Positions 15,368-51,353 of a DNA stretch of 64,000 nucleotides are shown here, piece after piece; the first letter of the stretch is position 1; the number at the start of each line of letters is the position of its first letter. The notes under the pieces are model-generated. The model saw only the letters and a list, made by a program, of their open reading frames with translations. It was not told where the DNA came from and made no database searches. The stretch lies in the IMG/VR virus record IMGVR_UViG_3300027969_000053; one strand, 5' to 3'. This DNA is from an uncultured virus (IMG/VR IMGVR_UViG_3300027969_000053). Lineage: Duplodnaviria; Heunggongvirae; Uroviricota; Caudoviricetes. The position numbers and the translations under genes were made by a program.

Positions 15368-15399
15368 TATAAATAAGTGTGGTTACTAACCATACACAA

Positions 15400-15957
15400 A
15401 TGTTTATAGATACGCACCACATAATACCAAGATCTGAAGGTGGAACTGATGATCCAAAAAATCTTGTTAAACTTCCAAGAAGATTACATCAAGAAGTTCA
15501 TCATCGTAGGTGGTTAGTTGGTGGATCTATTAATGATTTGTATGCTTTCCAAATATTAGGCGGAAATTTATCAGACGATGAATTGAAAAAAATTTATGAA
15601 GATCAAGTTTATAGATGTAAGAGGGATCAAACTAAATTGACTGAATCTAGAATAAATTCTGATAAATGGAAACAATCACATCAAAATGATGAATATAAAC
15701 AAAAGAAAAGAGAACAGAGTATTTTATTAAATAAACTTGGAAAAATTAATTCTAAAGAATCATCAATGCTTATAAGTGAAAAGAAAAAATCGGTGAAAAA
15801 TTACAATTCAAAATTAATTTCAGTTTATGGTAAAATATGGGAGGATGCTTCTAAATGTGTAAGAAGTGGTGGTTCTAATGGATTAAGTTTAAGACAATTG
15901 AGATACCGAGCGAATGAAATTAATTATCCCGATATATTTTATGTGGAGCAAATTTAG
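15400..15957 (+). CDS. free-standing HNH endonuclease
   Basis: HHIIPRSEGGTDDPKNLVKL..RLHQEVH; late promoter TATAAATA at 15368-15375. Confidence 0.85.
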   Translation: MFIDTHHIIPRSEGGTDDPKNLVKLPRRLHQEVHHRRWLVGGSINDLYAFQILGGNLSDDELKKIYEDQVYRCKRDQTKLTESRINSDKWKQSHQNDEYKQKKREQSILLNKLGKINSKESSMLISEKKKSVKNYNSKLISVYGKIWEDASKCVRSGGSNGLSLRQLRYRANEINYPDIFYVEQI

Positions 15958-15959
15958 TT

Positions 15960-16520
15960 ATGGTAATTGATTTAAATTATTTTGTTCAAGTTCATGAAAA
16001 TGCACTGGAAGAAAATGTTTGTGATTTCTTAATTTCATTATTTGATCAAGTTCCAGATAAACACGAGAGAATAGAAAACGAAAGAAAACCAAACTTCACT
16101 CAATTCAATCTTACTGAAAACTGTAAGATCACAGACGAAGTAAATACTGTTCACAATCATTTAATTAAAAAAACTTTTGATTATCGTAATGAATATTATG
16201 ATATGATTGATAAGAGAGTTTTTCCGGAAGAACACGCATTTGAACAATTTCGCATTAAGAGGTACAATAATGATGGCAATGACGAATTTGACACTCACGT
16301 AGATGTTATAGATCACGCAACATCAAGAAGATATTTGGCATTCTTTTGGTATTTGAATGATGTAGAACAGGGAGGAGAAACTAAATTTGCTGATATGATT
16401 ATACAACCAAAGAAAGGGAGTCTTCTTGTATTCCCTCCTCTTTGGATGTTTCCTCACGCAGGATTGCAACCAATAAGCAATCCAAAATATATTTTACACA
16501 CGTATTTGCACTATAAGTAA
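15960..16520 (+). CDS. 2OG-Fe(II) oxygenase
   Basis: HVD, YLNDVEQGGET, FPP.W.FPHAG, distal K. Confidence 0.9.
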   Translation: MVIDLNYFVQVHENALEENVCDFLISLFDQVPDKHERIENERKPNFTQFNLTENCKITDEVNTVHNHLIKKTFDYRNEYYDMIDKRVFPEEHAFEQFRIKRYNNDGNDEFDTHVDVIDHATSRRYLAFFWYLNDVEQGGETKFADMIIQPKKGSLLVFPPLWMFPHAGLQPISNPKYILHTYLHYK

Positions 16521-17152
16521 TGGAAAAAGTCGAAACTACTATTTTAAGAAATTTACTTTTTAATAATGATTATTGTAGAAAAGTATTACCATTTATTAAA
16601 AATGAATATTTTGAAAACCTTCACGAGAAGGTAGTTTTTGAAGAGATTTGTAAGTTTATTGTTGCTTATGATGGTCTTGCGACAAAAGAAGTTCTTTTAA
16701 TTGAAACTGAAAAAAGAACTGATATTACAGAAGATACTTATAAAACAATTTGTGAATATGTTTCTAATTTAGATAATACTCCTGCTGATACGAATTGGGT
16801 TACTGATACTACAGAAAAATGGTGCCGTGATAGAGCAATCTATCTTGCACTTATGGAAAGCATTAAAATTGCTGACGGACAAGATGATAAGAAGAATAGA
16901 GATGCAATTCCAACTATTCTTCAAGAAGCACTTGCTATTTCTTTTGATGACCATATTGGCCACGATTATCTAAACGATTATGAGGACAGATTTAATTCTT
17001 ATCACAGAAAAGAAGATAAAATTTCTTTTGATTTGGAATATTTTAACAAAATTACCAAAGGTGGTATTCCCAATAAAACACTCAATATTGCTTTAGCTGG
17101 TTGCGTTCATCCAGAAACCAGAGTTAAAATCAGATTTAGGAAGATTTCTTGA
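16520..17152 (+). CDS. gp41: replicative helicase gp41 N-terminal fragment fused to a 16-aa split-intein N part
   Basis: gp41 sequence up to NIALAG, then CVHPETRVKIRFRKIS and stop. Confidence 0.93.
   Translation: MEKVETTILRNLLFNNDYCRKVLPFIKNEYFENLHEKVVFEEICKFIVAYDGLATKEVLLIETEKRTDITEDTYKTICEYVSNLDNTPADTNWVTDTTEKWCRDRAIYLALMESIKIADGQDDKKNRDAIPTILQEALAISFDDHIGHDYLNDYEDRFNSYHRKEDKISFDLEYFNKITKGGIPNKTLNIALAGCVHPETRVKIRFRKIS
17102..17149 (+). mobile_element. atypically split intein, IntN (16 aa)
   Basis: Starts with Cys1 immediately after LAG of the Walker A loop; block A-like CVHPETRV. Confidence 0.88.
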
Positions 17153-17804
17153 TTTTGGAGTTTGGTGCTGGTTCTCCAGTTCCAAACTTCCAACCTTCAT
17201 TTAGTTTTATATCAACTTCTTCTGGTGATACTCTTTTCCATCCCTTTGTTCCCGGTAAATGCATTACCTTTTTGCCTTTATGTGCCTTTCCCCCTAATGA
17301 TGCTCGTGTTTTTCTTCCTTCATTAGATGCCCAATAATTGAATTCTGTGGATGCTCTTTGTTTTCCTCCAATTGATGCTCTTTCCTTTCTGCCTTCTTCT
17401 GTACTCCAATAATAGAAATTTTTAGTATTATTGATTAGATATTCTTGTTTTTGTATTTCTATTCCTTTTAGTCTCCAATCTTTTCTTTCTTCTACTGGGA
17501 TTGAGAAGAACCCAATTTGATTATCTCTACAAAATTCTCCTATTATTTTTCTGTGTTGGGGTGTTATATTTGCCCCCAACATTTTCATAGACCTTAAATC
17601 ATTTGGATTTTTATAAATTTTCCAAAGTAAATAATGTGCTATGATATGTTCTCTTACACTTAAATAAGTGAGATTTTCTTCACTATTATCTCCCCCCATA
17701 TGTTTTGGAGTAATATGGTGTTCGTGTATCCCAGAATATTTTTTATAATTGTCTTTTCTTGACCTATTGCTTTCGCATAGATTATAATAGATTTGACTAA
17801 ACAT
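17136..17804 (-). CDS. HNH endonuclease inserted antisense between the gp41 halves
   Basis: HEHHITPKHMGGDNSEENLTYLSVREHIIAH; minus-strand TATAAATA at 17833-17826. Confidence 0.88.
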   Translation of the reverse strand: MFSQIYYNLCESNRSRKDNYKKYSGIHEHHITPKHMGGDNSEENLTYLSVREHIIAHYLLWKIYKNPNDLRSMKMLGANITPQHRKIIGEFCRDNQIGFFSIPVEERKDWRLKGIEIQKQEYLINNTKNFYYWSTEEGRKERASIGGKQRASTEFNYWASNEGRKTRASLGGKAHKGKKVMHLPGTKGWKRVSPEEVDIKLNEGWKFGTGEPAPNSKIKKSS

Positions 17805-17837
17805 TTCCCCTGTCCCTGCTACTACTATTTATACAAA

Positions 17838-18215
17838 ATGTGGATTGAAAAAGAAACATCAATTGCTGAAATCAAAACATTACTTGATAATGGATATGAA
17901 GTGGAGGTCGATTCTCCCGATGGATATGTTCCTGTTAATTTTTTTATTAATAAAGGAATGTACGAAGAATATGAATTGCACTTGTATGATACTACTACTA
18001 AAGTAAAATGTAACGAAAGTCATTTATTTGAAACTAATCAGGGGTGGATTTCTGCTAAATCATTAGAGTATTCTAATTCGTATTGGGAGTTTATTACTAA
18101 AGACGGACTTAGAATTGGTAAGGTTATTAAGACCAATAATCAAATACCTATTGTAGATATTAATGTAAATCATCCAAATCATAGGTATTATACTAATGGG
18201 GTTTCCTCCCATAAT
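17838..18215 (+). mobile_element. atypically split intein, IntC (126 aa)
   Basis: Block B-like CNESH, block F IVDINV, terminal SHN, +1 Thr. Confidence 0.88.
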
Positions 18216-19010
18216 ACTGGTGTCGGAAAATCTTTGTTTATGTGTCATTTTGCTGCATCAGTTCTTCTTCAAGGAAAAAATGTTTTATACATTACACTTG
18301 AAATGGCAGAGGAAAAGATTGCTGAAAGAATTGACGCAAATCTTCTAAACATTAATATTAAAGACATTGAAACATTACCTAAAATGATGTTTGACTCAAA
18401 AATAAATAGTATTGCGAAGAAGACTCAAGGAACTTTAATTATTAAAGAGTATCCAACTGCTTCCGCACACGCAGGACATTTCAGAGCACTTCTAAATGAA
18501 CTCTCTCTTAAGAAATCATTCAGACCTGATATTATTTTTATTGACTACCTTAATATTTGTGGTTCCTCAAGATATAAGAGTAATTTTTCAGTTAATTCTT
18601 ATTCATATATTAAAGCAATTGCAGAAGAACTTCGTGGTCTTGCAGTTGAAGCAAATGTTCCAATTGTTTCCGCTACTCAAACTACTCGTAGTGGTTTTTC
18701 TAGCTCTGATCCTGATCTTACTGATACTTCTGAATCCTTTGGTCTCCCTGCTACTGCTGATCTTATGTTTGCCCTTATTAGCACAGAAGAGTTGGAACAA
18801 CTCGGGCAGATTATGGTAAAACAATTGAAGAATAGATACAATGACCCAACAATGAATAAAAGATTTGTAGTTGGTATTGACCGTGCGAAGATGAGATTAT
18901 TTGATGTAGAGCAAAGTGCTCAAACCGATATACTTGACTCTGGACAAGAAGAAGAGTATACTTATGAAGAAGATAAACCCAAAAAACAATTCTCTGGATT
19001 TAAATTTTAA
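17838..19010 (+). CDS. gp41: split-intein C part fused to the gp41 helicase C-terminal fragment
   Basis: MWIEKE...YYTNGVSSHN, then TGVGKSLFMCH, ITLEM, IFIDYL, SATQTTR. Confidence 0.93.
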   Translation: MWIEKETSIAEIKTLLDNGYEVEVDSPDGYVPVNFFINKGMYEEYELHLYDTTTKVKCNESHLFETNQGWISAKSLEYSNSYWEFITKDGLRIGKVIKTNNQIPIVDINVNHPNHRYYTNGVSSHNTGVGKSLFMCHFAASVLLQGKNVLYITLEMAEEKIAERIDANLLNINIKDIETLPKMMFDSKINSIAKKTQGTLIIKEYPTASAHAGHFRALLNELSLKKSFRPDIIFIDYLNICGSSRYKSNFSVNSYSYIKAIAEELRGLAVEANVPIVSATQTTRSGFSSSDPDLTDTSESFGLPATADLMFALISTEELEQLGQIMVKQLKNRYNDPTMNKRFVVGIDRAKMRLFDVEQSAQTDILDSGQEEEYTYEEDKPKKQFSGFKF

Positions 19011-19420
19011 TGACTAAAAAAATTGACTTTTCTAAATATCAAAACTTTGTAGATGCTGTAACTAGTGATGCATCTAAAGACTTTCTTGCTCTTTCTGACC
19101 GTATGGTAGAACTTGATGAGAAAGGTGCTAATATTGAAAGACTTTTGACTGCTGGTGTTGGTATTAATGCCGAAGGTGGTGAATTTCTTGAGATTGTGAA
19201 GAAAATGCTATTTCAGGGAAAACCTTGGAATGACGAAACCCGTACTCACCTGATTAAAGAACTTGGAGATACGATGTGGTATGTTGCCCAAGCCTGTATT
19301 GCTCTTGAAGTTTCTTTTGATGAAGTAATTCAAACCAATATTGACAAGCTAATGAAGCGTTATCCAGAAGGTTATTTTGATGCTTACTACAGCGAAAATC
19401 GTGAAGTGGGAGACATTTGA
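19010..19420 (+). CDS. mazG: MazG-like pyrophosphohydrolase
   Basis: EGGEFLEIVKK, KELGDTMWY, NIDKLMKRYP. Confidence 0.92.
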   Translation: MTKKIDFSKYQNFVDAVTSDASKDFLALSDRMVELDEKGANIERLLTAGVGINAEGGEFLEIVKKMLFQGKPWNDETRTHLIKELGDTMWYVAQACIALEVSFDEVIQTNIDKLMKRYPEGYFDAYYSENREVGDI

Positions 19421-19596
19421 TGGCAAAAACTGTAACTATTAAAATGGATGTTCGTTCTGCTGCGGCAGTTCGTCAAATTCTTTTTGAACACCAAAAAACA
19501 TATACTTATGATGAGTATACTATTCCTCCTAGGATTGCTGATATTCGTAGTGTAATTACGGACATTGATAAAAAAATTGAAGAACAAGTAAAATAA
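19420..19596 (+). CDS. small hypothetical protein (58 aa, not in the ORF track)
   Basis: ATG overlaps the mazG stop; MAKTVTIKMDVRSAAAVRQILF... Confidence 0.65.
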   Translation: MAKTVTIKMDVRSAAAVRQILFEHQKTYTYDEYTIPPRIADIRSVITDIDKKIEEQVK

Positions 19597-25311: not shown

Positions 25312-25413
25312 CTAAATATCAATACCTGTGTGGTTCGCATCTATCAGGTGGAAAGGGTGCTTTCGGGCACCTTTTCTTGTATAAATAGTATTGCGAACCA
25401 TAACAGAATAAAA
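25312..25413 (+). ncRNA. candidate small structured RNA cassette with two late promoters, copy 2
   Basis: CTAAATA(25312-25318); ACCTG/CAGGT stem with loop TGTGGTTCGCA; GGTGC-TTTCGG-GCACC hairpin plus T-run; TATAAATA(25380-25387); TGCGAACCATA. Confidence 0.6.
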
Positions 25414-25980
25414 ATGATTTATTACACTTACGCATATTTGCGGGTAGATAGAACACCTTATTACATAGGAAAAGGAAAAGGTAATAGGGCATATAGAAGA
25501 AGATATAAAGGTGAAGTAAGAGCACCAAAGGATAAGTCAAGAATAATTTTCCTAAAACAAAACTTAACCGAAGAAGAAGCATTTAAGCACGAAATCTATA
25601 TGATTGCCGTGTTCGGCAGGATAGATTTAGGAACTGGTATTCTTCACAATAGAACTGATGGTGGTGAAGGTGCTTCTGGTGCTATAAGAAGTGAAGAAAC
25701 AAAATTAAAAATGAGAACTCCTAAAAAAACAACAATAAATATGAAAAAACCAAAAAGTGAGGAGCATAAGAAAAAAATAGGATTGCGTAGAAAAGGAAAA
25801 AAACACACGGAAGAAGCAAGAAAAAAAATGAGTGATGCTCAGGTTAGGAGAATTATCACTGATGAATTTAGAGAAAAAATTCAAAAAAGTAGAATGGGAA
25901 GAAAACATTCCGAAGAAACAAAACAAAAAATGAGAGAAAAAGCATTATTAAGAGAAGAACTAAAACGGAACAATAAATAA
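25414..25980 (+). CDS. GIY-YIG homing endonuclease with NUMOD3 repeats, paralog of 7049..7618
   Basis: [52 protein letters not shown] and GRKHSEE. Confidence 0.88.
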
Positions 25981-29242: not shown

Positions 29243-30247
29243 ATGAATTTTATTGATCAAAAATACATTGGTCTGGTTTCTTCAAGACTGGAGAAGTTTA
29301 AACAAGTTAAAACTGGACTGTATAATTTTAGATGTGTATATTGTGGGGATTCACAAAAGAATAAAAGCAAGACAAGAGGATATATTTACGGTTATAAGAA
29401 CGATCATAATTACAAGTGTCACAATTGTGGAGTATCTAAATCTTTTACTAATTTTCTAAAAGATATTGACACCACTCTTTATGATCAATATATTATGGAG
29501 AGATATAAGAATGGTTCTACTGGCAAGGGATCTAATACACCGGAACCAAAATTCACCTTTGAAAAACCAAAATTCACAAAAAAAGCATTTGATTTGCCAT
29601 CCATCGCAGAACTAAATAAAGAACATTCGGCAAGAATTTATTTAGAAAACAGAAAAATTCCTCAAGATTTTTTGAGTCAATTATTTTATTGTGAAAAGTT
29701 CAAACAATGGACGAATGAACAAAAAAAAACTTTTGAATCTACAAAATACGATGAACCTAGAATCATCATTCCACTTATCAACAATGGAGAAATATTTGGA
29801 TTTCAGGGTCGTAGTTTAAGTAAGAAACCAAAAGTAAAATACATCACAATTATTCTAGATGAAGATCAACCAAAAATTTATGGATTAAACAGAATTGATT
29901 GGAACAAAACTGTTTATGTTGTAGAAGGTCCATTTGATAGTATGTTTATTGAAAATTCAATTGCGATGGTTGGTGCGGATATTGATAAAATGTTTTTCAT
30001 AGCAAATTTTGAAACCAATTTTGTTATGGTCTATGATAATGAAAAAAGAAATAAAGAGATGGTTGCACGATTAGAAAAAAGCATTGAGATGAAATTTCCT
30101 GTGGTAATTTGGCCAAAAGATTTAAAGGAAAAAGACATTAATGATATTGTATTATCTGGACAAGACGTGGAATCTATGCTAAAATTAAATACTTACCAAG
30201 GATTAGAAGCAAAACTTAAATTTACCAACTGGAAAAAAGTAGCATGA
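29243..30247 (+). CDS. gp61: DNA primase gp61
   Basis: Zn finger CVYCGD...CHNC, FQGRSL, TOPRIM VEGPFD, KDIND. Confidence 0.96.
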   Translation: MNFIDQKYIGLVSSRLEKFKQVKTGLYNFRCVYCGDSQKNKSKTRGYIYGYKNDHNYKCHNCGVSKSFTNFLKDIDTTLYDQYIMERYKNGSTGKGSNTPEPKFTFEKPKFTKKAFDLPSIAELNKEHSARIYLENRKIPQDFLSQLFYCEKFKQWTNEQKKTFESTKYDEPRIIIPLINNGEIFGFQGRSLSKKPKVKYITIILDEDQPKIYGLNRIDWNKTVYVVEGPFDSMFIENSIAMVGADIDKMFFIANFETNFVMVYDNEKRNKEMVARLEKSIEMKFPVVIWPKDLKEKDINDIVLSGQDVESMLKLNTYQGLEAKLKFTNWKKVA

Positions 30248-31959
30248 GTAACGGCATAAACGTAGTTAAGAGAGATGGGTCTATTGAAAGTTTAGACCTC
30301 AATAAACTTCATTTGATGGTTGAAGAGTCTTGTAAAGACCTTGCTGGAGTGTCTGCATCTCAAGTTGAGATGACTTCTGGAATTCAATTTTATGATGGAA
30401 TTTCAACAAGAGAAGTTCAAGAAATTTTGATCAAATCTGCAGCAGATTTGATTGATTTAGAAAATCCAAATTATCAGTTTGTGGCAGCAAGACTTCTTTT
30501 GTTCTCTGTTCGTAAATCACTTTACGGAAAAATTAAAGATCATCCTACATTCTTTGAACATATTAATAAATGTGTAGATGCAAGTGTTTATGATAAGGAA
30601 ATCTTATCATATTATACGGAAGAAGAACTAAATCGTCTTGGTGATTATATCAAACATAAACGGGATTATCTCTTCACCTATGCCGGTCTTCGTCAAGTTG
30701 TTGATAAATATCTTGTTCAAGATAGAAGCACCGGACAAGTATATGAAACTCCACAGTTCATGTATATGATGATTGCTGCAACAAAATTCTCCCAATATCC
30801 AAAAGAAACTCGTCTTTCATATGTAAAGAGGTACTATGACGCAATATCAAAACACAAAATCAACATCCCAACACCAATTATGGGAGGAGTTAGAACTCCT
30901 TTACGACAATTTGCAAGTTGTGTTCTTGTTGATTCTGATGATACCCTCGATAGCATCGGTCACTCTGATTTGGCTATTTACAAGTACGTTGCTCAAAGGG
31001 CTGGCATCGGTATCAATGCGGGCAGAATACGTGGTATCAATTCTAAAATCAGAGGCGGAGAAGTACAACACACAGGTGTTATTCCCTTCCTTAAAAAGTT
31101 TGAAGCAACTGTCAGAAGTTGCACTCAAAACGGTATCAGAGGTGGTTCAGCAACTGTTCACTTTCCAATCTGGCACCAAGAAATAGAAGACATTATTGTT
31201 CTGAAAAATAATAAGGGAACTGAAGATAATCGTGTTCGTAAGTTAGACTATTCTATTCAAATCAGCAAAATCTTCTATGAACGATTTATCCGCAACGAAG
31301 AAATCACACTCTTCTCTCCCCACGATGTTCCTGGTCTTTATGATGCTTTTGGCACTGATGGATTTGACGACCTTTATGTGGGTTATGAACGAAATGAATC
31401 TATTCCAAGAAAAACTATCGGTGCTCAAGAACTCTTTCTGGACCTTCTAAAAGAACGTGCAGAAACAGGTCGTATTTATATTATGAATATTGACCATTGT
31501 AATTCTCATAGTTCTTTTCTTGATAAGGTTTCAATGAGTAACCTTTGTGTTGCTGGTGATACAAAGATTAAAATCAAATACCCAAAAGCAATATATGATG
31601 ATATTGGAGAGATTTATGATTGGAAAGTTTATGAAGAAGAAATTGAGATTGGAGATCTGGATGAATATATTAGTTCCAGAGAAATTAGAGTTATGTCTTA
31701 TAAAGTAAGTGATAATGATCCTTGTGAGGATGTTCCTCAAATAGAAGTTCTTTCTTATAATACAGAAACTAATCAACAAGAATGGGCACCTATTACAGCA
31801 TTTGCCGAAACATCACCAAAAGCAAAGGTAATGAGAATTACTGATGAAGAAAGTGGTAAGAGTATTGTAGTGACACCAGAGCATAAAGTATTCACAAAAA
31901 ATCGTGGATATGTAATGGCAAAAGACCTAACCGAAACTGATGAGTTGGCAATCAACTAA
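30244..31959 (+). CDS. nrdA: class Ia ribonucleotide reductase alpha, N-terminal fragment fused to a split-intein N part
   Basis: ATP cone, PTPIMGG, QFASC, ERAETGRIY, up to MSNL then intein CVAGDT. Confidence 0.95.
   Translation: MSNGINVVKRDGSIESLDLNKLHLMVEESCKDLAGVSASQVEMTSGIQFYDGISTREVQEILIKSAADLIDLENPNYQFVAARLLLFSVRKSLYGKIKDHPTFFEHINKCVDASVYDKEILSYYTEEELNRLGDYIKHKRDYLFTYAGLRQVVDKYLVQDRSTGQVYETPQFMYMMIAATKFSQYPKETRLSYVKRYYDAISKHKINIPTPIMGGVRTPLRQFASCVLVDSDDTLDSIGHSDLAIYKYVAQRAGIGINAGRIRGINSKIRGGEVQHTGVIPFLKKFEATVRSCTQNGIRGGSATVHFPIWHQEIEDIIVLKNNKGTEDNRVRKLDYSIQISKIFYERFIRNEEITLFSPHDVPGLYDAFGTDGFDDLYVGYERNESIPRKTIGAQELFLDLLKERAETGRIYIMNIDHCNSHSSFLDKVSMSNLCVAGDTKIKIKYPKAIYDDIGEIYDWKVYEEEIEIGDLDEYISSREIRVMSYKVSDNDPCEDVPQIEVLSYNTETNQQEWAPITAFAETSPKAKVMRITDEESGKSIVVTPEHKVFTKNRGYVMAKDLTETDELAIN
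31546..31956 (+). mobile_element. split intein IntN (137 aa)
   Basis: CVAGDTKI (block A), VTPEHKVFT (block B), AKDLTETDEL then stop. Confidence 0.92.
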
Positions 31960-31963
31960 TATG

Positions 31964-32017
31964 ATAGGAAGTGTAATTTCTATATTTTATAAATAGTTAT
32001 GAGATTACACTTCCTAT
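31964..32017 (+). promoter_or_regulatory. 17-bp inverted repeat enclosing late promoter TATAAATA
   Basis: ATAGGAAGTGTAATTTC / GAGATTACACTTCCTAT; TATAAATA at 31988-31995; ATG at 32019. Confidence 0.8.
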
Positions 32018-32018
32018 A

Positions 32019-32693
32019 ATGAAAACATATATTGTTTATAAAATTACCAATAAGAATAACGGAAAATCTTACATAGGAAAAACTGAATACTCATTAGAAC
32101 ATCGTTGGAATCGTCATTTATCATCGGCAAGAAATGGTTCTAAATTTAGATTTCATTCTGCTATTAGAAAATATGGTGAAGATTGTTGGGACTTATCTGT
32201 GATTGAAACCTATCTGACCGAAGATGAAAACTTTATTAACGAAAAAGAAACTCACTTTATTAAACTCTTTGAAAGTGATACTAAAAAAGGTTATAATGCT
32301 ACTTCAGGTGGAACTGGTGGATGGATGCTTCCCAAATGCTCTCCGGAGGTTCAGGAAGAATGGAGAAACAATATTTCTATAAGAACTACTGGTTCCAACA
32401 ATCCAAACCATTCTGGATATACTGATGAGCAACTTATAGAAATAGGTGTAAAGTTTGTTAAAAAATTTGGATTTATTGGTGGTAGAACGAGAATAGTTGA
32501 TTTTGCCAGTAATGAATTGAATATAAAGTTTCCAAAACATTTTTCTAAAAATAGATTTGGAGGAAACCATCAAAACTTTTATAAATCTATTGAAGAACAG
32601 ACTGGATTGGTGTATAATTCATATTATAGAGACGAAACTCAAAGAACACTTGCTAAACAACTTTTAGAACAAAACAGGAGAAAAAAATGCTAA
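32019..32693 (+). CDS. GIY-YIG endonuclease between the nrdA halves
   Basis: YIVYKITNKNNGKSYIGKT, R..H, E..FI, GYN. Confidence 0.9.
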   Translation: MKTYIVYKITNKNNGKSYIGKTEYSLEHRWNRHLSSARNGSKFRFHSAIRKYGEDCWDLSVIETYLTEDENFINEKETHFIKLFESDTKKGYNATSGGTGGWMLPKCSPEVQEEWRNNISIRTTGSNNPNHSGYTDEQLIEIGVKFVKKFGFIGGRTRIVDFASNELNIKFPKHFSKNRFGGNHQNFYKSIEEQTGLVYNSYYRDETQRTLAKQLLEQNRRKKC

Positions 32694-32785
32694 AGATTGA
32701 ATATCTTGAAGAAGAAATTCCAGTTTATGATATTACTGTAGAAGGAACACACAATTTCTTTGCAAATAATATTCTGGTCCATAAT
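32687..32785 (+). mobile_element. split intein IntC (33 aa)
   Basis: Blocks F/G VYDITV...HNFFAN..LVHN; +1 Cys. Confidence 0.92.
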
Positions 32786-33781
32786 TGCCAAGAGATTACA
32801 CTTCCCACCAAACCTCTTCAACATATTGATGATCCAGATGGAGAGATTGCTCTCTGTATTCTTTCTGCAATCAATGTGGGTAAAGTTAAGGATGATAGTG
32901 AATTTGAAGAACTTTGTGATTTGGCTGTTCGTGGGTTGGAAGAACTCATTGATTATCAGCAATATCCAATAGTTGCTGCTGAAAAATCAACAAAAGCACG
33001 TAGATCTCTTGGTGTTGGATTTATTGGTTTGGCACATTATCTTGCTAAACTTGGTTTTGATTATGATTCTCAAGAAGCATGGGATGCAGTTCATAGTCTT
33101 TCTGAATCATTCCAATATTTCTTACTCAAATCTTCTAATCAGATTGCCAAAGAAAAAGGTGCTTGTGAATATTTCAATCGCACAAAGTATTCCCAAGGAA
33201 TTCTTCCAATTGATACATACAAAAAGGATGTTGATGAACTGTCAAATCCAACTCTTCAACACGATTGGGAAACACTTAGAGAAGATATAAAACTGTATGG
33301 TCTTAGACACTCCACACTATCCGCACAGATGCCCTCTGAGAGCAGTTCAGTCGTCTCTAATGCAACTAATGGAATTGAACCCCCTAGAGGTTATTTGTCC
33401 GTCAAACAGTCTAAAAAAGGTCCTCTCAAGCAAATTGTTCCACAGTTTCAAAGTCTTAAAAACAATTATACGCTTCTTTGGGATATGCCTAGCAATCGTG
33501 GTTATATTAATATTGTTGCAGTTATGCAAAAATTCTTTGATCAAGCGATTTCTGGAAACTGGTCATATAATCCGGAGAATTATCCCGATAATGAAGTTCC
33601 TGTTAGCGTAATGGCACAAGATATGCTCACTTGCTTTAAGTATGGGCACAAAACAGCATATTATCAGAATACTTATGATGGTAAGTCCGATGAAATCAAA
33701 GAAGAAAAATCCAACCTTGACAGTTTAGTGCAGGACATACTAAACTCTAATGAAGATGACTGTGAGAGTTGTAAAATTTGA
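32687..33781 (+). CDS. nrdA: split-intein C part (33 aa) fused to the NrdA C-terminal fragment
   Basis: MLKIEY...VYDITVEGTHNFFANNILVHN then CQEITLP; AGGAG Shine-Dalgarno; ends CESCKI. Confidence 0.95.
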   Translation: MLKIEYLEEEIPVYDITVEGTHNFFANNILVHNCQEITLPTKPLQHIDDPDGEIALCILSAINVGKVKDDSEFEELCDLAVRGLEELIDYQQYPIVAAEKSTKARRSLGVGFIGLAHYLAKLGFDYDSQEAWDAVHSLSESFQYFLLKSSNQIAKEKGACEYFNRTKYSQGILPIDTYKKDVDELSNPTLQHDWETLREDIKLYGLRHSTLSAQMPSESSSVVSNATNGIEPPRGYLSVKQSKKGPLKQIVPQFQSLKNNYTLLWDMPSNRGYINIVAVMQKFFDQAISGNWSYNPENYPDNEVPVSVMAQDMLTCFKYGHKTAYYQNTYDGKSDEIKEEKSNLDSLVQDILNSNEDDCESCKI

Positions 33782-38132: not shown

Positions 38133-38718
38133 ATGAGTTATGATAATCCTTGGTTATATCAAGGAAAGATTTTTGAGACAGAAGATATTGGAGAGCACTT
38201 TGGATTTATCACAATGTTCTACTAGACTATAAATTCTATCAATTTCTGTTGAAAAATATTTACCTTCTATATTTGTATTATAATAGTCTTCACTTATAAG
38301 TACATTACGATTGAATTGTTCATAAGTTTCATAATAACTCATAGATTTCTTATGAGGACATAGATACAATATTTCCTTTATGAACTTATCTTCACCAAGA
38401 TTTTTTATATCTACTTTAAGTTCATCGCAAGAGCTTAAATATTTTCTCCAATCACTTTCTTTCTTTTTTCTCCTTCCGGTTTTTCTATCTTTTTGACGAG
38501 TCCAAAAATGTTTCTTGCCAACATACTTTTTATTATTCGTGAGATTGGTAATTAAATATACAAACCCTTCCATTTCTTTTGGAATTTCAATTAAATCTTC
38601 TTCGTTATACTTCCACTCCATAAAAATATTTTCTTCCTTTAAAATTATTTATAGAAAATACTTCTGGTCTCTTAGAACACCAAAAGGATATGTTACTAAA
38701 TTAGTTGAGCCGTTCTAG
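38133..38718 (+). pseudogene. relic of a GIY-YIG gene disrupted by an inverted homolog
   Basis: MSYDNPWLYQGKIFETEDIGEHFGFI (38133-38210) and RKYFWSLRTPKG (38653-38688) flank the minus-strand gene. Confidence 0.7.
38154..38621 (-). CDS. short GIY-YIG endonuclease (DenA/Seg-like)
   Basis: GFVYLITNLTNNKKYVGKKHFW, ESDWRKY, YYNTNI; minus-strand TATAAATA at 38653-38646. Confidence 0.85.
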   Translation of the reverse strand: MEWKYNEEDLIEIPKEMEGFVYLITNLTNNKKYVGKKHFWTRQKDRKTGRRKKKESDWRKYLSSCDELKVDIKNLGEDKFIKEILYLCPHKKSMSYYETYEQFNRNVLISEDYYNTNIEGKYFSTEIDRIYSLVEHCDKSKVLSNIFCLKNLSLI

Positions 38719-44944: not shown

Positions 44945-45865
44945 ATGACAATTTTAGTGACTGGTGGGTGTGGATTTATTGGCAGTAATTTTATTCACCA
45001 TTTAAAAAAGAGAACAAGTGAAAAAATCATTTGTATTGATAAAATGACTTATGCTGCTGATTATGGAAATATTTCAAATTTAGATATTGAATTATATCCA
45101 CTTGATATTAATAATTCGGATTATGTATTTAAAGAAAATAAAATTAAAACCGTCTATCATTTTGCTGCGGAAAGTCACGTAGATAATTCAATTAAAAGTT
45201 GCTCCGAATTTATCAATACTAATATTAATGGAACAGTCAATCTTTTGAATCTTTCTATGAAATATAATGTTGAGAAGTTTATTCATATTTCTACGGATGA
45301 AGTTTATGGTTCAATTGAACACGGTAAATTTACGGAGACAACAACATATAATCCAAGAAATCCATATTCAGCATCAAAAGCTGCAAGTGATCATTTTGTG
45401 ATGGCTTACCATAATACTTACGGTCTTCCTGCTATCATTACAAATTGTTCAAATAACTATGGACCAAGACAGCACGAAGAAAAATTAATTCCAAAGACAA
45501 TTAAAAATTTAATGATGGGGAATAAAGTTCCTATCTATGGTGATGGGCAACAAATTCGTGATTGGTTATATGTTCAAGACCATTGTGAGGCAATTTTAGT
45601 TGTGGCAGAAAAAGGAAAGTTTGGTGAAAAATATAATATTGGTGGAGAATGTGAAGTCAAAAATCTTGATTTGATAAAAAATATTCTTAATATTATGAAA
45701 AAAGACGAAGATATGATAGAATATGTGAAGGACCGTCCAGGGCACGACCGTAGATATTCAACTGATATTACTAAAATACAAACTGAACTTGGTTGGTCTC
45801 CTAGATTTAATTTAGAACAAGGATTGGAAAAAACCATTGAATGGTATAAAAGTCATTTACAATAA
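44945..45865 (+). CDS. rfbB: dTDP-glucose 4,6-dehydratase
   Basis: GGCGFIG, AAESHVDNS, STDEVYG, YSASK, DRPGHDRRY. Confidence 0.93.
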   Translation: MTILVTGGCGFIGSNFIHHLKKRTSEKIICIDKMTYAADYGNISNLDIELYPLDINNSDYVFKENKIKTVYHFAAESHVDNSIKSCSEFINTNINGTVNLLNLSMKYNVEKFIHISTDEVYGSIEHGKFTETTTYNPRNPYSASKAASDHFVMAYHNTYGLPAIITNCSNNYGPRQHEEKLIPKTIKNLMMGNKVPIYGDGQQIRDWLYVQDHCEAILVVAEKGKFGEKYNIGGECEVKNLDLIKNILNIMKKDEDMIEYVKDRPGHDRRYSTDITKIQTELGWSPRFNLEQGLEKTIEWYKSHLQ

Positions 45866-45913
45866 AGGCATTTTAAACTAAAATACATAGTACATACACT
45901 AATAAGTTAATTT

Positions 45914-46960
45914 ATGAGTCAATATAAAAAAACTGCACTTGTTCTTGGTGCGGGTGGCTTTATTGGAAGTCATATGGTAAAACGATTGAGATCCGAAGGA
46001 TATTGGGTCACCGGAGTAGATGTTAAACTCCCAGAATATTCTAAAAGTGAAGCAAATGAATTCATCCTTGGAGATTTGACAAATCAATTATTTACTGATA
46101 AAGTAATAATGTTTAAAGGATATCAACAAAACTTTTATAAATTTGTCCCATCCAAATACATATCAGCATTTGATGAAATATATCAATTTGCCGCTGATAT
46201 GGGAGGTGCTGGATATATTTTTACTGGAGAAAACGATGCTGATGTGATGAACAATTCTTGTTCTATCAATTTGAATATTCTTCGCTCGGTTAAAAATTTA
46301 AATGACAATCTTGGCGTGAATAAAACAAAAATATTTTATTCGTCATCAGCGTGTATGTATCCAGAGCACAATCAATTAGATCCTAATAATCCAAACTGCC
46401 GTGAAGAATCTGCTTATCCCGCTAGCCCAGACTCTGAATATGGATGGGAAAAACTTTTTTCAGAACGTCTTTACTTTGCGTACAATAGGAATTATAATAT
46501 ACCTGTGCGTGTATGTCGCTACCATAACATCTTTGGCCCCGAAGGGACCTGGAAAGGCGGAAAAGAAAAATCCCCAGCAGCAATTTGTCGCAAAGTAGCA
46601 GAACTTCCTGATCTTGGTGGATCCATTGAAGTTTGGGGTGATGGGGAGCAAACTCGTTCGTTCCTTTATATCAATGAATGTATTGAAGCGACACGAAGAT
46701 TGATGGAATCTGATTTTATGGGACCAGTCAATATTGGATCTGAAGAGATGGTAACAATCAATCAACTTGTGGATATTACTGCTAAAGTTTCCAGCAAAAC
46801 AGTACAGAAAAGATATAAATTGGATGCTCCCCTTGGTGTCCGTGGTCGTAATTCTAATAATGACTTAATTCGTAAAGAACTCGGTTGGGATTATAGTATG
46901 ACTTTAGAAGAGGGTATTACAAAAACTTACAAATGGATTGAGGAACAATTAAATGGTTGA
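45914..46960 (+). CDS. GDP-mannose 3,5-epimerase-like SDR
   Basis: AADMGGAGYI, SSSACMYP, YGWEK, GGKEKSPAA, GVRGRNS. Confidence 0.85.
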   Translation: MSQYKKTALVLGAGGFIGSHMVKRLRSEGYWVTGVDVKLPEYSKSEANEFILGDLTNQLFTDKVIMFKGYQQNFYKFVPSKYISAFDEIYQFAADMGGAGYIFTGENDADVMNNSCSINLNILRSVKNLNDNLGVNKTKIFYSSSACMYPEHNQLDPNNPNCREESAYPASPDSEYGWEKLFSERLYFAYNRNYNIPVRVCRYHNIFGPEGTWKGGKEKSPAAICRKVAELPDLGGSIEVWGDGEQTRSFLYINECIEATRRLMESDFMGPVNIGSEEMVTINQLVDITAKVSSKTVQKRYKLDAPLGVRGRNSNNDLIRKELGWDYSMTLEEGITKTYKWIEEQLNG

Positions 46961-47606
46961 AAATTTTTCTTGGAGTGATAATAGAAGAGAAGATTGGAGA
47001 GATTATGTCCGTTCTTTGGAAAATGATAATATAAGTGAAATTCTTGGAGCAATTCCATCAGGATGGAATGTACCACCAAAAAGTCATAATGAATTTGTGA
47101 TTTGGTTGATGAATAGAATTGATCCAAAATTAACTGTAGAACTTGGAGTTGATTGGGGATATTCATCTTTTATGCTTGCTTTGAATACAAAAAATGAGGT
47201 TGTTGGTATTGATTGTTTTGATATTTCAAAACATAGTTTAAGAAAAGATGATGACTATCAATTTGTTATGGACATAAAAGAAAAACTAAAACTTGATAAC
47301 TTAGAAATTATTAAAGGATATTTTGACGATGTAGCAAAAACTTGGAATAAAGAAATCAATCTTCTTCATATTGATGGTCTTCACGATTATAATAATTGTA
47401 AAAATGATTGCGATACCTGGGCGCCATTTTTGGAAGAAAGAGGTGTAGTATTATTCCACGATACTATTTCAAATCCAGATGGAGTTGGACTTTTCTTTTC
47501 TCAACTTGAACTTCCAAAAGTGAATTTTACCAATTCTTGTGGATTGGGTGTTGCTTCAAATGATGTTAAATTGATTGAAGAAATTAAACAAGTTTTTAAA
47601 CTATGA
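46953..47606 (+). CDS. class I SAM-dependent methyltransferase
   Basis: VELGVDWGYS, LLHIDGLHDY, VLFHD. Confidence 0.85.
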   Translation: MVENFSWSDNRREDWRDYVRSLENDNISEILGAIPSGWNVPPKSHNEFVIWLMNRIDPKLTVELGVDWGYSSFMLALNTKNEVVGIDCFDISKHSLRKDDDYQFVMDIKEKLKLDNLEIIKGYFDDVAKTWNKEINLLHIDGLHDYNNCKNDCDTWAPFLEERGVVLFHDTISNPDGVGLFFSQLELPKVNFTNSCGLGVASNDVKLIEEIKQVFKL

Positions 47607-48139
47607 TTAAACTTATAATCCTTGATGTGGATGGTGTTCTTACTGATGGCACCAAATATTATGATCATGATGGGAAAGTAGTTCTTAAACTTTTCTGTGA
47701 TAAGGATTGGACTGCAATTAAAAGGTTTCGTGCTATTGGAATTCCAGTTGTTTTTATAACTGGCGATCCTTATAATGAGATCATTCTTAAGAATAGAAAT
47801 CTCCCTGTTGTAGTGAATCGTGGCGAAGGATTTCATAAAGACAAAGTAAATTATCTTGCAGAAGTTCTTGATGATTACAATTGTCTTGTAGAAGAAGTTG
47901 TTTATCTTGGAGATGATCTTTTTGATTATGGTATAATGAGAGAGGTTGGATATCCTTATTGTGTGTTAAATTCACCAAGAACTCTTCAAGACATTTCTGT
48001 AGTTCTTCACTGTAATGGTGGAGAAAATGCAGTGATGTGTTTGTTTGAATATCTGGAGGATAGAGAATTGATTCCGGTTGTTCCTTATGATGAGGTAATG
48101 TCTAAAATTTATGAACTTGACTTGAAGGAAAACTTTTAA
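47603..48139 (+). CDS. KdsC-like HAD phosphatase
   Basis: LDVDGVLTDG, YLGDDLFD, GGENAV. Confidence 0.85.
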   Translation: MIKLIILDVDGVLTDGTKYYDHDGKVVLKLFCDKDWTAIKRFRAIGIPVVFITGDPYNEIILKNRNLPVVVNRGEGFHKDKVNYLAEVLDDYNCLVEEVVYLGDDLFDYGIMREVGYPYCVLNSPRTLQDISVVLHCNGGENAVMCLFEYLEDRELIPVVPYDEVMSKIYELDLKENF

Positions 48140-48810
48140 TGAAAGACATTTCTCTTTATGGGCATCTGACTATTGATACGATTCTTGACGGTAATTCTGA
48201 AAAGAAAAGTTTAGGATCAATGGCAAATGTTTGGAGATCTTTACTTGAGATTGATTCAACATTAAATATTGGACTTTCTCCAATTGATGTTGGTCAAGCA
48301 CTTGTTTATATTGATAAACTTTCAGCACAAAGGTATTCAAAAGCAAATTTAAATCTAGTTCAACACAAAGTAAAAATCTTCGAATCAAAAGTTCACCATC
48401 TAATTTATCTCAATGAAATGTCTATTCATGATTTTATTCCAAAACTGAATGGTATTATCACTGCAGATATATGTTCTGGAAAATCATTGAATAAAGATTT
48501 ACTTAAGGGTGTAGATTATCTTTTTATTTCTGATGAAGATATTGATGGCAATCTTTCAGATTACGTGAATACAATAAAGGGGTATGTGATACTTCATAGT
48601 TCATCAGGAAGCATTGTATCAAATGGAAAAGATGAGTTTTTCTATAAACTGCCTAAAGATTTAATACTGAAAGGTGTTAATGTTCTTGGTGCTGGTGATA
48701 CATTTGCGTCTTGTTTCTTATATAAATTACTAAGGAATGAAGGAAGCATCCACAACTGGATCGAATTTGCTCATTTAAAGACAACTGAAATTATTAGGAA
48801 TTCGATATGA
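48139..48810 (+). CDS. PfkB/ribokinase-family sugar kinase
   Basis: GHLTID and VLGAGDTFA. Confidence 0.78.
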   Translation: MKDISLYGHLTIDTILDGNSEKKSLGSMANVWRSLLEIDSTLNIGLSPIDVGQALVYIDKLSAQRYSKANLNLVQHKVKIFESKVHHLIYLNEMSIHDFIPKLNGIITADICSGKSLNKDLLKGVDYLFISDEDIDGNLSDYVNTIKGYVILHSSSGSIVSNGKDEFFYKLPKDLILKGVNVLGAGDTFASCFLYKLLRNEGSIHNWIEFAHLKTTEIIRNSI

Positions 48811-49964
48811 AACCAAATATTCTTGTTCCGATGGCGGGACTTGGTAGTAGATTTATTAAAGAAGGATTTAAAGTACCAAAGCAGTTAATTAATATCAAAG
48901 ACAAACATCTAATTGATATTTCGCTTGATTGTTTGAACTATGAAGATTGTAATCTAATCTTCGTGGTTAGGGATGAAACTGTTTATAATTTTCATATTGA
49001 TGAACTCCTAAAGAAAAAGTTTGGTGAAGATATCAAGATTGTTATTATTGATAAACTTACTGATGGATCTGTGAGCAGTTGTCTGTATGCAGAAGAATAT
49101 ATTGATAATGATGCGCCTCTTGTAATTCATACTCTAGATATTGAATTCCGTCCAGTATTTGATCCGCATACTATTAATAACTTGAATGCAGATGGACTCC
49201 TTTTGACATTTAAATCAAATTCTGCAAATTATAGTTATGCTGATGTTAATGAAGATGGATATGTAAAAAGAACTGCTGAAAAGAAAGCAATTAGTTCTAA
49301 TGCCTGTGTTGGTATCTATGGATTCAAAAAAGGATCCGACTTCTGCAAGTATGCAAAGGAAATGATCGAAAGAGATATTAGAACTAATAATGAGTTTTAT
49401 ATTGCACCTTTGTATAATCTTCTTATTGATGATTGTAAGAAAATCGTTACTTCGGATGTAGATAAAATGCATGTATTTGGAACTCCTGATGAGTTTCATT
49501 TCTACAAAGAAAATGTCATTCGTAAGGTTGGTGATAAACCAATTGCTATTTGCTCAGACCATTCTGGATTTGAATCAAAGGAAAAGTTTAAACATATTCT
49601 AGAAAAACACAATCTTGAGTATATTGATTTTGGAACTATCTTGAATAAGGATTGTGATTATAGTGATTATATTGCACAAGCAGTTAAAGCAATTGCTGAG
49701 CGTGATTGTGATTATGGATTTGGTTTCTGTAGAACAGGTCAAGGTGTGAATATTTGTGCTAACAAATACAAAGGTATTCGTTCAGCACTTATCTATGATG
49801 ATTTCTCTATGGAGATGGCAATCCGACATAATTGTGCTAACTTTTTTGCAATTCCTGCAAAAGATTATACTATCGAAAAAATGGATAAGTATTTGGAAAT
49901 CTGTTCTACTCATAACTTTGATGGCGGTCGTCATCAGGTTCGTATTCAGGAATTAGAAAAATGA
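48807..49964 (+). CDS. nucleotidyltransferase fused to a RpiB/LacAB isomerase domain
   Basis: PMAGLGSRF..PKQLI, NEFYIAP, FGTPDE; then SDHSG, CRTGQG, FDGGRH. Confidence 0.85.
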   Translation: MKPNILVPMAGLGSRFIKEGFKVPKQLINIKDKHLIDISLDCLNYEDCNLIFVVRDETVYNFHIDELLKKKFGEDIKIVIIDKLTDGSVSSCLYAEEYIDNDAPLVIHTLDIEFRPVFDPHTINNLNADGLLLTFKSNSANYSYADVNEDGYVKRTAEKKAISSNACVGIYGFKKGSDFCKYAKEMIERDIRTNNEFYIAPLYNLLIDDCKKIVTSDVDKMHVFGTPDEFHFYKENVIRKVGDKPIAICSDHSGFESKEKFKHILEKHNLEYIDFGTILNKDCDYSDYIAQAVKAIAERDCDYGFGFCRTGQGVNICANKYKGIRSALIYDDFSMEMAIRHNCANFFAIPAKDYTIEKMDKYLEICSTHNFDGGRHQVRIQELEK

Positions 49965-50281
49965 TTCAAGCAAATATTGTTGACTTTAAAGCAGGATGGT
50001 TTGTTGGGGACTTTGAACCATCTATTTTTAAGAATCCATTTTTTGAAGTTGCACACCATTCTCACACAAAAGGTCAACAAACTTTTCCTCATTACCATGC
50101 AGTCACTAATGAACTTAACTACATTGTAAAAGGTGAACTAATAGTATCTGGAAAGCATTTGAATGCAGGTAATATGTGGATCTATGAACCAAAGGAAATT
50201 TCTGATGTTGAGTTCTTGAGTGATGTTGATCTTATAGTAGTGAGATGGCCGTCTATTCCTTCGGATAAGTATATGGTATGA
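49961..50281 (+). CDS. cupin-domain protein
   Basis: GWFVGDFEP, HYH...E.NYIVKG. Confidence 0.75.
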   Translation: MIQANIVDFKAGWFVGDFEPSIFKNPFFEVAHHSHTKGQQTFPHYHAVTNELNYIVKGELIVSGKHLNAGNMWIYEPKEISDVEFLSDVDLIVVRWPSIPSDKYMV

Positions 50282-50745
50282 AACTGATAGCACATAGAGG
50301 TAATATTGTAGGACCTAATCCTCTAGAGGAGAATAAACTAGAATACATTGAAGCAGCAATTGCAGGTGGATATGATGTTGAGATTGATGTAAGATGGGAA
50401 GATCATCAGTTTTATTTGGGACATGATGGACCACAATATTATGTCCCTATGACTTGGTTAGTTAAAAGAAAAGATAAACTTTGGATTCATTGTAAAGATT
50501 TTAAATCTTTGAATATTTTTTCTAATAGTCCAATAGATTTTAACTTTTTTTGGCATGAAAACGATAAGTATACTTTGACTAGTAAAGGTTATATTTGGAC
50601 TTATCCTGGGCAATTATTTGAAAATAATTCTGTTATTGTAATGCCAGAAGTATTCGACTTGCAAAATATTCAAGATAATGGTACAATAGCATACAGCAAA
50701 AAATCTTTTGCTGTATGTAGTGACTATGTGGAAAAATTTAAATGA
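50278..50745 (+). CDS. glycerophosphodiester-phosphodiesterase-like protein
   Basis: IAHRGN, EN, VEIDV, LGHD, WIHCK. Confidence 0.78.
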   Translation: MKLIAHRGNIVGPNPLEENKLEYIEAAIAGGYDVEIDVRWEDHQFYLGHDGPQYYVPMTWLVKRKDKLWIHCKDFKSLNIFSNSPIDFNFFWHENDKYTLTSKGYIWTYPGQLFENNSVIVMPEVFDLQNIQDNGTIAYSKKSFAVCSDYVEKFK

Positions 50746-51353
50746 CATCTACGATTTCCCCAGTATTTAAAGAATTAAAACAATATGATAAAATTAATGT
50801 TATAGATGTTGGATCTGCAAGAGCATCTTTTTTGGTAGAATTGGAAAAATCCTTTGATCTAAAAAATGTTTATTCTATAGGAATTGATCCAATTGATTAT
50901 GGAGTAGAATCTCATTATGATAAGTTTTATCGTGTTTGTCTGGATGACGTTAAAACTCCTCAAAAGCAAATATTTTATAACGATGATCAATCCTCTTCGC
51001 TGCTTTCTTCCAAAGGTGAAAAAATGGGCTTGGTTGACATTTTAAATATCAATAGCATTATCGATGTTGATATACCAGAAAATATTATACATTTTATTAA
51101 AATAGATGCAGAAGGAAAGGATTTGTCTATTGTAAAATCTTTATCAAAACAAAATTTAAATAGAACAAAATTTATTGCAATAGAATGTCCAAATAAAATT
51201 CCAAGATATGATGGCGAATATATTAAAAAAGATTGTATTGAATATTTTAATTCTATAAATTTTGAATTTTTTTATGAATACGATACTAATATTGAATCTT
51301 GGAACAAATCAGATTTGAGTGATGTCGTTTTTATAAACAAACGAGAATTATGA
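50742..51353 (+). CDS. FkbM-family methyltransferase
   Basis: VIDVGS, FIKIDAEG. Confidence 0.72.
   Translation: MTSTISPVFKELKQYDKINVIDVGSARASFLVELEKSFDLKNVYSIGIDPIDYGVESHYDKFYRVCLDDVKTPQKQIFYNDDQSSSLLSSKGEKMGLVDILNINSIIDVDIPENIIHFIKIDAEGKDLSIVKSLSKQNLNRTKFIAIECPNKIPRYDGEYIKKDCIEYFNSINFEFFYEYDTNIESWNKSDLSDVVFINKREL

Follow-up and report, generated by a model that had tools for sequence, protein, structure and literature searches.

A cyanophage gp41 helicase gene interrupted within a predicted VidaL-type split intein by an antisense HNH endonuclease cassette

In the stretch of 64,000 nucleotides (nt) from the uncultured virus IMGVR_UViG_3300027969_000053 analyzed here (the whole of which is referred to as the window), the gene encoding gp41, a DnaB-like replicative helicase, is found in two separate open reading frames (ORFs) that part inside the Walker A motif. 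It is very probable that this helicase is made as two polypeptides that are joined by class-1 trans-splicing of a VidaL-type intein, itself split by an inserted cassette. The split is caused by an HNH homing-endonuclease cassette whose gene lies antisense to gp41, a cause that was absent from the preliminary description of this locus. In the proposed mechanism, a mobile cassette of 688 base pairs (bp) would have entered a formerly contiguous mini-intein right past its second β-strand (the S1 site). One polypeptide would carry the N-extein and an N-terminal intein piece (IntN) of 16 amino acids (aa), and the other would carry a C-terminal intein piece (IntC) of 126 aa followed by the C-extein. 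In infected cells, the short IntN strand would dock on IntC and complete the HINT fold, and Cys1, the block B His, the block F Asp and His, the terminal His-Asn pair and the Thr at position +1 would then carry out class-1 protein trans-splicing. Excision of the intein would recreate the Walker A sequence LAG-TGVGKS, with a predicted ligated junction peptide reading ...TLNIALAGTGVGK.

The anatomy of the locus was established by alignment with the intact gp41 proteins of Synechococcus phage S-SCSM1 and Prochlorococcus phage P-TIM68 (coordinates of all features are given in Table 1). Against these proteins the two extein parts abut exactly, at ...TLNIALAG/TGVGKSLFMCH within Walker A, and the 16 and 126 residues of the two intein pieces therefore represent 142 residues inserted in this motif, with extein residues neither lost nor duplicated. 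The N-extein, at 63-76% identity, aligns with intact cyanophage gp41 over residues 1-194 of the latter and, via a contiguous allele, matches the T4-type helicase structures 8dtp and 8due, while the C-extein is 79-85% identical to the C-terminal part of intact cyanophage gp41 and matches the Pfam family DnaB_C with an expectation value (E) of 5.5e-18. The C-terminal half is opened by an ATG at position 17838, in a different frame from the N-terminal half and 685 bp past its stop codon, and is open through to position 19010. The insertion is in frame and precise within a conserved motif of the host protein, and its removal gives LAG/TGVGKS, the same sequence as in gp41 of S-SCSM1 and P-TIM68. 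The break inside Walker A and the restoration of LAG-TGVGKS upon excision had both been put forward in the preliminary description; its coordinates and sequences proved exact to the base, and the intact relatives read precisely as predicted. The 25 best matches among GenBank phages (Kyanoviridae, 70-75% nucleotide identity) cover only 47-55% of the 2491-bp stretch, in two to three pieces, because they do not carry the insert.

Judged from its sequence, the insert is a class-1 HINT intein with a VidaL-type S1 split. VidaL (PDB 6vgv/6vgw; Burton et al. 2020 and Neugebauer et al. 2017, cited in PMC13014065) is, according to the passages of PMC13014065 that deal with it, an S1-split intein of natural origin that depends on cysteine, has a 16-aa IntN and splices with a half-time (t1/2) of ~1 min. 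A PDB sequence search with IntC identified VidaL 6vgv as the best match among solved structures (E 1.1e-11) and the gp41-1 intein as a far weaker one (E 0.0023); the inteins AceL TerL, GOS TerL and PolB16 were not among the matches that this search gave at E up to 10. When the contiguous allele P0008, which reads ...NIALAG-CVHPETKVKIRFRKIS-L-WIEKE...SSHN-TGVGKS..., was compared with 6vgv, the match extended over the whole intein (E 1.3e-14, query residues 194-338 against chain residues 3-144), with 42 identical residues in ~145 columns by manual count (~29% identity). The IntN residues align 16-for-16 with the VidaL IntN, and the codon at the split falls opposite the Met that opens the VidaL C-piece, KKG/M in VidaL corresponding to KIS/(L or M) here. 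Two contiguous alleles, P0008 and P0014, show 98% identity in the IntC part. As in VidaL, the natural split is found after β-strand 2, leaving a 16-aa IntN and an IntC that opens with Met. The likeness to VidaL, which had been noted in the preliminary description with alignment to published atypically split inteins proposed as the check, is thus supported both by the best structural match and by the split at the equivalent aligned residue.

The intein of the window resembles VidaL in being a class-1, Cys1-dependent mini-intein of ~142 aa with a 16-aa IntN and an IntC of ~126 aa, as far as VidaL is described in these passages of PMC13014065, and also in the aligned position of the split, in the Gly at position -1 and in a nearly identical block F/G sequence, HPNHRYY..G..SH. 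It differs from VidaL in that the two share only ~29% identity, in the IntN itself (CVHPETRVKIRFRKIS here versus ALPKEAVVQIRLTKKG in the crystal chain, where the construct has Ala for Cys1), in the +1 residue (Thr, versus Ser in the crystal chain), and in its origin from a freshwater T4-like cyanophage. Gly at -1 and Ser-Gly at +1/+2 of the 6vgv chain would agree with VidaL having the same host gene (a T4-like helicase in the preliminary description) and the same insertion site, and are no proof of either. The assignment of the host phage as a cyanophage with auxiliary metabolic genes was confirmed by the presence in the window of a psbA gene, encoding the photosystem II protein D1, and of a block of sugar-nucleotide epimerase/dehydratase genes.

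The residues expected to catalyze splicing were found to be conserved in 13 aligned relatives that are 62-94% identical to the window sequences. Cys1 of block A, directly after ...LAG, is invariant in all 13 N-terminal halves and is present in all 71 loci for which the N side is available. Block B of IntC (C58-N59-x-x-H62), which stands opposite C-x-x-x-H of VidaL, block F (IPIVDINVNH.NHRY), block G (SSHN) and the Thr at +1 are likewise invariant in 13 of 13, and the invariant residues of IntC comprise C58, N59, H62, D107, H112, H115, S123, S124, H125 and N126 as well as T127, the +1 residue. The IntN core, CVHPETKVKIRFRK, is conserved in the relatives, and the tail past this 14-aa core varies from 2 to 11 aa. 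The 16-aa IntN and the Thr at +1, both of which had been described for this locus before, can accordingly be retained, the latter as a residue shared by all 13 relatives.

A structural model of the putative complex was built from IntC extended by 14 extein residues (140 aa in all) and from the C-terminal 40 residues of the N-terminal half, with a 13-row alignment for each. This model scored 0.81 and the best of three controls 0.00, where the score mark applied was attained by 116 of 157 solved complexes and by 2 of 215 mismatched pairs. The model runs shared at least 79% of contacts, and the predicted local distance difference test (pLDDT) value of the partner was at least 56. The confident interface joins residues 23-39 of the N-piece (AG and the whole IntN) to IntC residues 1-12, 19-25, 56-63, 103-107 and 117-127, and thereby covers block B (56-63), block F (103-107) and block G with Thr+1 (117-127). 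The model speaks for binding only and is silent on chemistry, which is also what would be expected if the halves assembled, through the intein pieces or through helicase contacts, into a non-covalent two-chain helicase without any splicing. A precedent for such an arrangement is the nrdA gene of phage Aeh1, which is split by an HNH endonuclease gene without an intein and whose two chains form an active, unspliced enzyme (Dassa et al. 2009, in the relevant part of PMC2677866). This explanation is nevertheless improbable for gp41: the break falls in the Walker A loop, where 142 extra residues would block ATP binding unless taken out; the splicing residues (C1, the block B His, the terminal His-Asn and T+1) are invariant in 13 of 13 relatives and the intein is under purifying selection, all of which would be needless for mere docking; and VidaL, the characterized homologue, does splice, according to the passages of PMC13014065 on this intein.

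Comparison of contiguous alleles with the window also defined the element that separates the two intein pieces. The DNA of six contiguous alleles (L049, L055, L058-60 and L062) reads ...AAGATTTCTTG/GTGGATTGAAAAAG and that of the window ...TCTTG-A(...)AT-GTGGATT..., which places the insert at 17152-17839, a length of 688 bp. The first base of this cassette is the A of the TGA stop codon of the N-terminal half and its last two bases are the AT of the ATG start codon of the C-terminal half. A cassette that supplies both a stop and a start codon is what the gene-breaking model of Dassa et al. (2009) predicts, as that model is outlined in part of PMC2677866. The cassette carries a free-standing gene for a homing endonuclease, which matches PHROG 655 and shows a weak Pfam HNH match (E 0.008) that lies below the cut-off. 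The gene is convergent with the N-terminal half of gp41, and its last codons and stop codon overlap the final 17 nt of that ORF, including the stop.

Analyses of related loci in IMG/VR showed that this layout is recurrent. A scan with IntC yielded 80 loci without de-replication (one of them, L003, shares 100% identity with the window), and 61 of these are split with an insert of 592-1575 bp. Another six, those listed above, have a contiguous intein, four are split with no room for a gene (L005, with a TAATG overlap, L024, L072 and L073, the last with TGATTATG), and the N side is cut off in nine. A minus-strand homologue of the endonuclease (~200 aa) was found in 58 of the 61 insert-bearing split loci; five of these homologues are only 37-39% identical and four 49-50%. 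Among the other three insert-bearing loci, L038 and L056 retain a remnant only and L076 has a plus-strand gene. The split layout is present in these 61 loci despite exteins that have diverged to about 57-88% nucleotide identity. In 19 loci (L012, L016, L029, L030, L033, L034, L037-39, L041-43, L045, L046, L048, L051, L061, L071 and L075), an extra plus-strand ORF of 102-278 aa is located between the IntN stop codon and the antisense endonuclease gene; the nine of these ORFs that were tested matched no Pfam family (with a sub-threshold RyR match in two), and a single weak PHROG match to 'metallo-protease' (E 8e-5) was obtained.

A protein search in which only the IntC part was scored gave 589 clusters at E ≤0.001 among 636 candidates. 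Among the 120 matches listed of these 589, 116 are 291-405 aa long and four are 598-608 aa long, the long ones representing contiguous alleles; the Pfam intein label PF14890 was found on 14 of the 120 matches listed. IntC matches 268 clusters at E ≤0.001, and 82 at E ≤1e-10, in a library with clustering at 50% identity. The 82 were sorted by length and match position, split-like being a match within the first 15 residues of a protein of 340-460 aa and contiguous-like a match starting at residue 150-260 of a protein of 540-900 aa. Seventeen were split-like, 22 contiguous-like, and 43 were fragments, other architectures or ankyrin-repeat proteins.

The distribution of nucleotide identity along the locus points to mobility of the cassette. 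Between the window and loci L006-8, identity is 72-75% in the exteins, 99% in the cassette, 96% in IntN and 92% in IntC. In 60-nt steps against L006, identity is 97-100% from ~17120 to ~17960, 80-85% in the middle of IntC and ~70% in the exteins, a pattern that represents a conversion tract centered on the cassette. A tract that is centered on the cassette and ignores the borders of the intein suggests that the endonuclease homes into intein DNA, and the endonuclease would then cut contiguous-intein alleles. Ratios of nonsynonymous to synonymous substitution rates (dN/dS), estimated by the Nei-Gojobori method for the window versus 13 loci where dS was not saturated, were 0.09-0.40 for IntC, 0-0.41 for the 14-codon IntN core, 0.08-0.22 for the exteins and 0.10-0.21 for the endonuclease. 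Both helicase halves, the intein and the endonuclease are thus all under purifying selection, and the intein is mobile and probably functional. These values argue against the possibility that gp41 is a pseudogene killed by endonuclease insertion, with another helicase taking over replication. A gene broken by a stop codon and a selfish element could give this impression, and a second helicase gene could sit elsewhere in the genome, the view taken here being limited to the window. This reading is nonetheless very unlikely, since both halves are full-length open frames with dN/dS of 0.08-0.22 in the exteins, the layout recurs in 61 of 80 loci, and the stop and start codons are exactly placed.

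Phage genes often carry group I introns with endonuclease genes, and the interruption could in principle be removed at the RNA level, or could represent a chimera of assembly. No Rfam family, and hence no intron family, matched 16000-19500 at E up to 1; in-frame intein blocks flank the insert, and the endonuclease gene is on the opposite strand. Contigs from an independent DNA run (X2) span 16400-19100, and pieces with 0-2 differences cross both junctions of the cassette; taken together with the same layout in 61 of 80 IMG/VR loci, this indicates that the split layout is not an assembly artefact. Among contigs from RNA libraries (Logan contigs), none skips 17150-17837. Only the DNA run, X2, contained joints that bypass the region, leading from 17055 or 17089 to 18215, and these are intein-less alleles of co-occurring phages. 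Removal of the interruption from the RNA, or a chimeric assembly, can therefore be given hardly any weight. Sampled words of the window were present at shares of 0.86-0.98 in three runs labelled freshwater metagenome, one of which is a possible source, and at ~0.43-0.44 in a further 15 lake or freshwater runs, where a near-identical cassette may be present in other phage backgrounds.

Several observations weigh against assembly of gp41 by trans-splicing. Splicing is predicted by homology, and the sole characterized relative is only ~29% identical; in addition, the aligned +1 residue of the 6vgv chain is Ser, not Thr, in a construct that possibly lacks native exteins. The favorable score of the complex model may reflect likeness to, or memory of, 6vgv, because VidaL has already been solved, and the pLDDT of the partner is modest (56-58). 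No obvious Shine-Dalgarno sequence precedes the IntC ATG, which leaves it unproven that the C-terminal half is expressed. The RNA-library contigs are neutral on expression: pieces were found at 17104-17346 (crossing the junction of the IntN stop and the cassette) and 17810-17979 in X20, at 17392-17619 in X21 and only at 18713-18796 in X19, and such contigs are no proof of transcription, strand or level. Finally, evolution may have run from contiguous to split or, by precise loss, in reverse.

Two promoter-like sequences were found in the cassette. On the minus strand, TATAAATA, a T4-type late-promoter consensus, lies upstream of the endonuclease ATG by 21 nt and precedes the IntC ATG by 4 nt, and it is equally placed in 41 of 47 distinct cassette-bearing upstream sequences; it could function as a late promoter of the endonuclease gene. 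On the plus strand, the best sigma-70-like match of the region (11/12) is located 49 nt upstream of the IntC ATG and is a possible promoter for the C-terminal half, to be regarded as a lead only. Sigma-70-like sites in the region numbered 23, versus 21.4 expected from shuffling, i.e., chance level. In 42 of 47 distinct loci, a match of at least 10/12 precedes the IntC ATG by 46-62 nt, a conservation that may stem from coding, because the site is inside the endonuclease coding sequence.

A more speculative proposal, which is put forward as a tentative one, is that the antisense HNH cassette represents an autonomous gene-splitting homing element that targets the S1 loop of the contiguous intein rather than the helicase gene and converts cis-splicing to trans-splicing in one step. 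Along with a stop and a start codon, such an element would possibly also provide the C-terminal half with a sigma-70-like promoter. Contiguous, endonuclease-split and endonuclease-less states exist at up to 98-99% identity, and the birth of an atypically split intein could therefore be replayed in the laboratory. No terminator-like site was found after the antisense late promoter; if this promoter is used as proposed, late endonuclease transcripts would run antisense into the gene of the N-terminal half and could stop helicase synthesis late in infection.

This locus is of a known kind on two counts, namely the intein type, represented by VidaL, and the fractured-gene arrangement, described by Dassa et al. 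(2009) for gp41-1 to gp41-9, NrdA, NrdJ and IMPDH in the sections of PMC2677866 on these genes. In the same sections, as here, a phage replication gene is found in two adjacent pieces on the same strand that carry split-intein halves and are separated by a free-standing endonuclease gene, TATAAATA is found before the endonuclease gene, alleles without the endonuclease gene occur, and, in the model of the authors, the invader brings stop and start codons. The endonucleases reported there are GIY-YIG or Vsr-like and are encoded on the same strand, overlapping the downstream gene, and the split sites are canonical except in the terminase. By comparison, the window has an insertion site in Walker A, an S1 split and an antisense HNH gene that overlaps the end of the upstream gene. 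Moreover, unlike in that study, no hairpin in the 5' untranslated region was found here: in a fold of 17790-17860 (minus strand), no hairpin of the type that would sequester the ribosome-binding site of the endonuclease gene was detected (-6.9 kcal/mol, z 0.81; 163 of 200 shuffles fold equally well or better).

Other natural inteins that are atypically split and whose IntN is short, from metagenomic phage-like genes, have been reported. In the passages of PMC13014065 and PMC10189870 that cover them, AceL TerL and GOS TerL are S2-split, i.e., past helix α1, with an IntN of 25-37 aa, and PolB16 OarG is S1-split and cysteine-less with a 15-aa IntN. They resemble the intein of the window in these general features and differ from it in that, according to the same passages, the TerL inteins reside in a terminase and PolB16 in PolB, the latter without catalytic cysteines. 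Short-IntN split inteins are valued for protein semisynthesis, and few natural ones (VidaL, PolB16 and the TerL inteins) have been characterized. The preliminary description considered the short-IntN arrangement rare, which holds among characterized inteins; in metagenomes it is common, as the 589 protein clusters show. Similarly, the IntN is short enough to be synthesized, as proposed for a candidate protein-engineering tool, and VidaL already fills that purpose.

No close relative of IntC was found among 50,697 GenBank phages, where the genome of the window itself was possibly masked. Sixteen GenBank phage records match IntC, all at <60% identity and with a maximum of 32.6-33.3%. Eleven of them (H28-H38) are PA5oct-like Pseudomonas jumbo phages, with 31.5% identity over 99% of IntC, and the gene carries the annotation of a UvsX/RecA-like recombinase in most of them; by sequence, this relative appears to be a related intein in another replication or recombination gene. 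A literature search found no description of this cyanophage intein subfamily or of its antisense endonuclease, the primary VidaL papers being outside the search. Since the kind is already known, the locus offers specialists confirmation and enrichment rather than surprise. Together with several hundred metagenomic relatives, it represents a natural library of VidaL-type S1-split inteins with Thr at +1 and divergent IntN sequences, some of which may be orthogonal to VidaL. The most useful addition is the natural allele series with its exact empty-site comparison: contiguous, endonuclease-split and endonuclease-less alleles coexist, which supports the gene-breaking model of 2009 in an unusually direct way and extends it to an HNH endonuclease, to an antisense orientation and to a non-canonical split site.

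Table 1. Features of the split gp41 locus and of other genes in the window
Feature	Coordinates	Strand	Description and evidence
gp41 N-extein (DnaB-like replicative helicase)	16520..17101	+	194 aa, ending ...TLNIALAG; alignments
ORF of the N-terminal half	16520-17152	+	210 aa, ends ...TLNIALAGCVHPETRVKIRFRKIS then TGA
IntN	17102..17152 (codons 17102-17149, stop 17150-17152)	+	16 aa (CVHPETRVKIRFRKIS) and TGA stop
Free-standing HNH homing endonuclease gene	17136..17804	-	222 aa; PHROG 655 'homing endonuclease', E 2.2e-15
Inserted homing-endonuclease cassette	17152..17839		688 bp; comparison with contiguous alleles
Sigma-70-like site, possible promoter	17759..17788	+	TTGACC-18 nt-TATAAT (11/12); best match in region
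T4-type late-promoter consensus	17826..17833	-	TATAAATA; read directly from sequence
IntC	17838..18215	+	126 aa, MWIEKE...NGVSSHN; blocks B, F and G present
gp41 C-extein	18216..19010	+	264 aa and stop, Thr+1 first (TGVGKSLFMCH...)
Second free-standing HNH homing endonuclease gene	15379-15957	+	PHROG 655, E 8e-16; Pfam HNH, E 2.2e-5
NUMOD3-motif protein gene, endonuclease-like	25330-25980	+	E 2e-9
Ribonucleotide reductase large subunit, fractured gene	30244-33781		canonically split intein
GIY-YIG endonuclease gene in the reductase gap	32019-32693	same as reductase gene	overlaps start of C-terminal half by 7 nt
SegE-type GIY-YIG gene	38154-38621	-	Pfam, E 1.4e-35
Sugar-nucleotide epimerase/dehydratase gene block	44945-53117		
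psbA (photosystem II D1)	62319-63398	+	Pfam Photo_RC, E 2e-88

At least five homing-endonuclease-like genes were found in the window. The second free-standing HNH gene is located between uvsX and a 2OG-Fe(II) oxygenase gene, just upstream of gp41, and its nuclease domain shares 35% identity, over 65 aa, with that of the endonuclease that splits the intein. A second fractured gene, encoding the large subunit of ribonucleotide reductase, contains a canonically split intein with a long IntN (...NL/CVAGDTKIKI...) and a 33-aa IntC (MLKIEY...ILVHN/CQEITLP), and its gap holds a GIY-YIG endonuclease gene on the same strand. The fractured reductase gene matches the fractured NrdA genes that Dassa et al. 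(2009) present in part of PMC2677866.

The start of IntC (IAEIKTLLDNGYEVEVDSPDGYVPVNFFINKG, residues 9-49, 17862-17984) is ankyrin-repeat-like and matched designed ankyrin proteins in the PDB search (E 6.6e-5); multi-repeat proteins of 1000-2800 aa also appeared in the search of the representative library with IntC. This likeness is probably due to chance or convergence. Among the relatives, P0016 and P0031 have gp41 in three pieces, with a middle protein of 374-375 aa that carries a VidaL-type IntC at its start and a canonical gp41-1 split-intein IntN at its end (TRSGY/CLDLKTQV...), the latter matching the gp41-1 intein (PDB 6qaz, E 5.4e-48). At this second site, gp41 of the window is uninterrupted (TRSGFSSSD).

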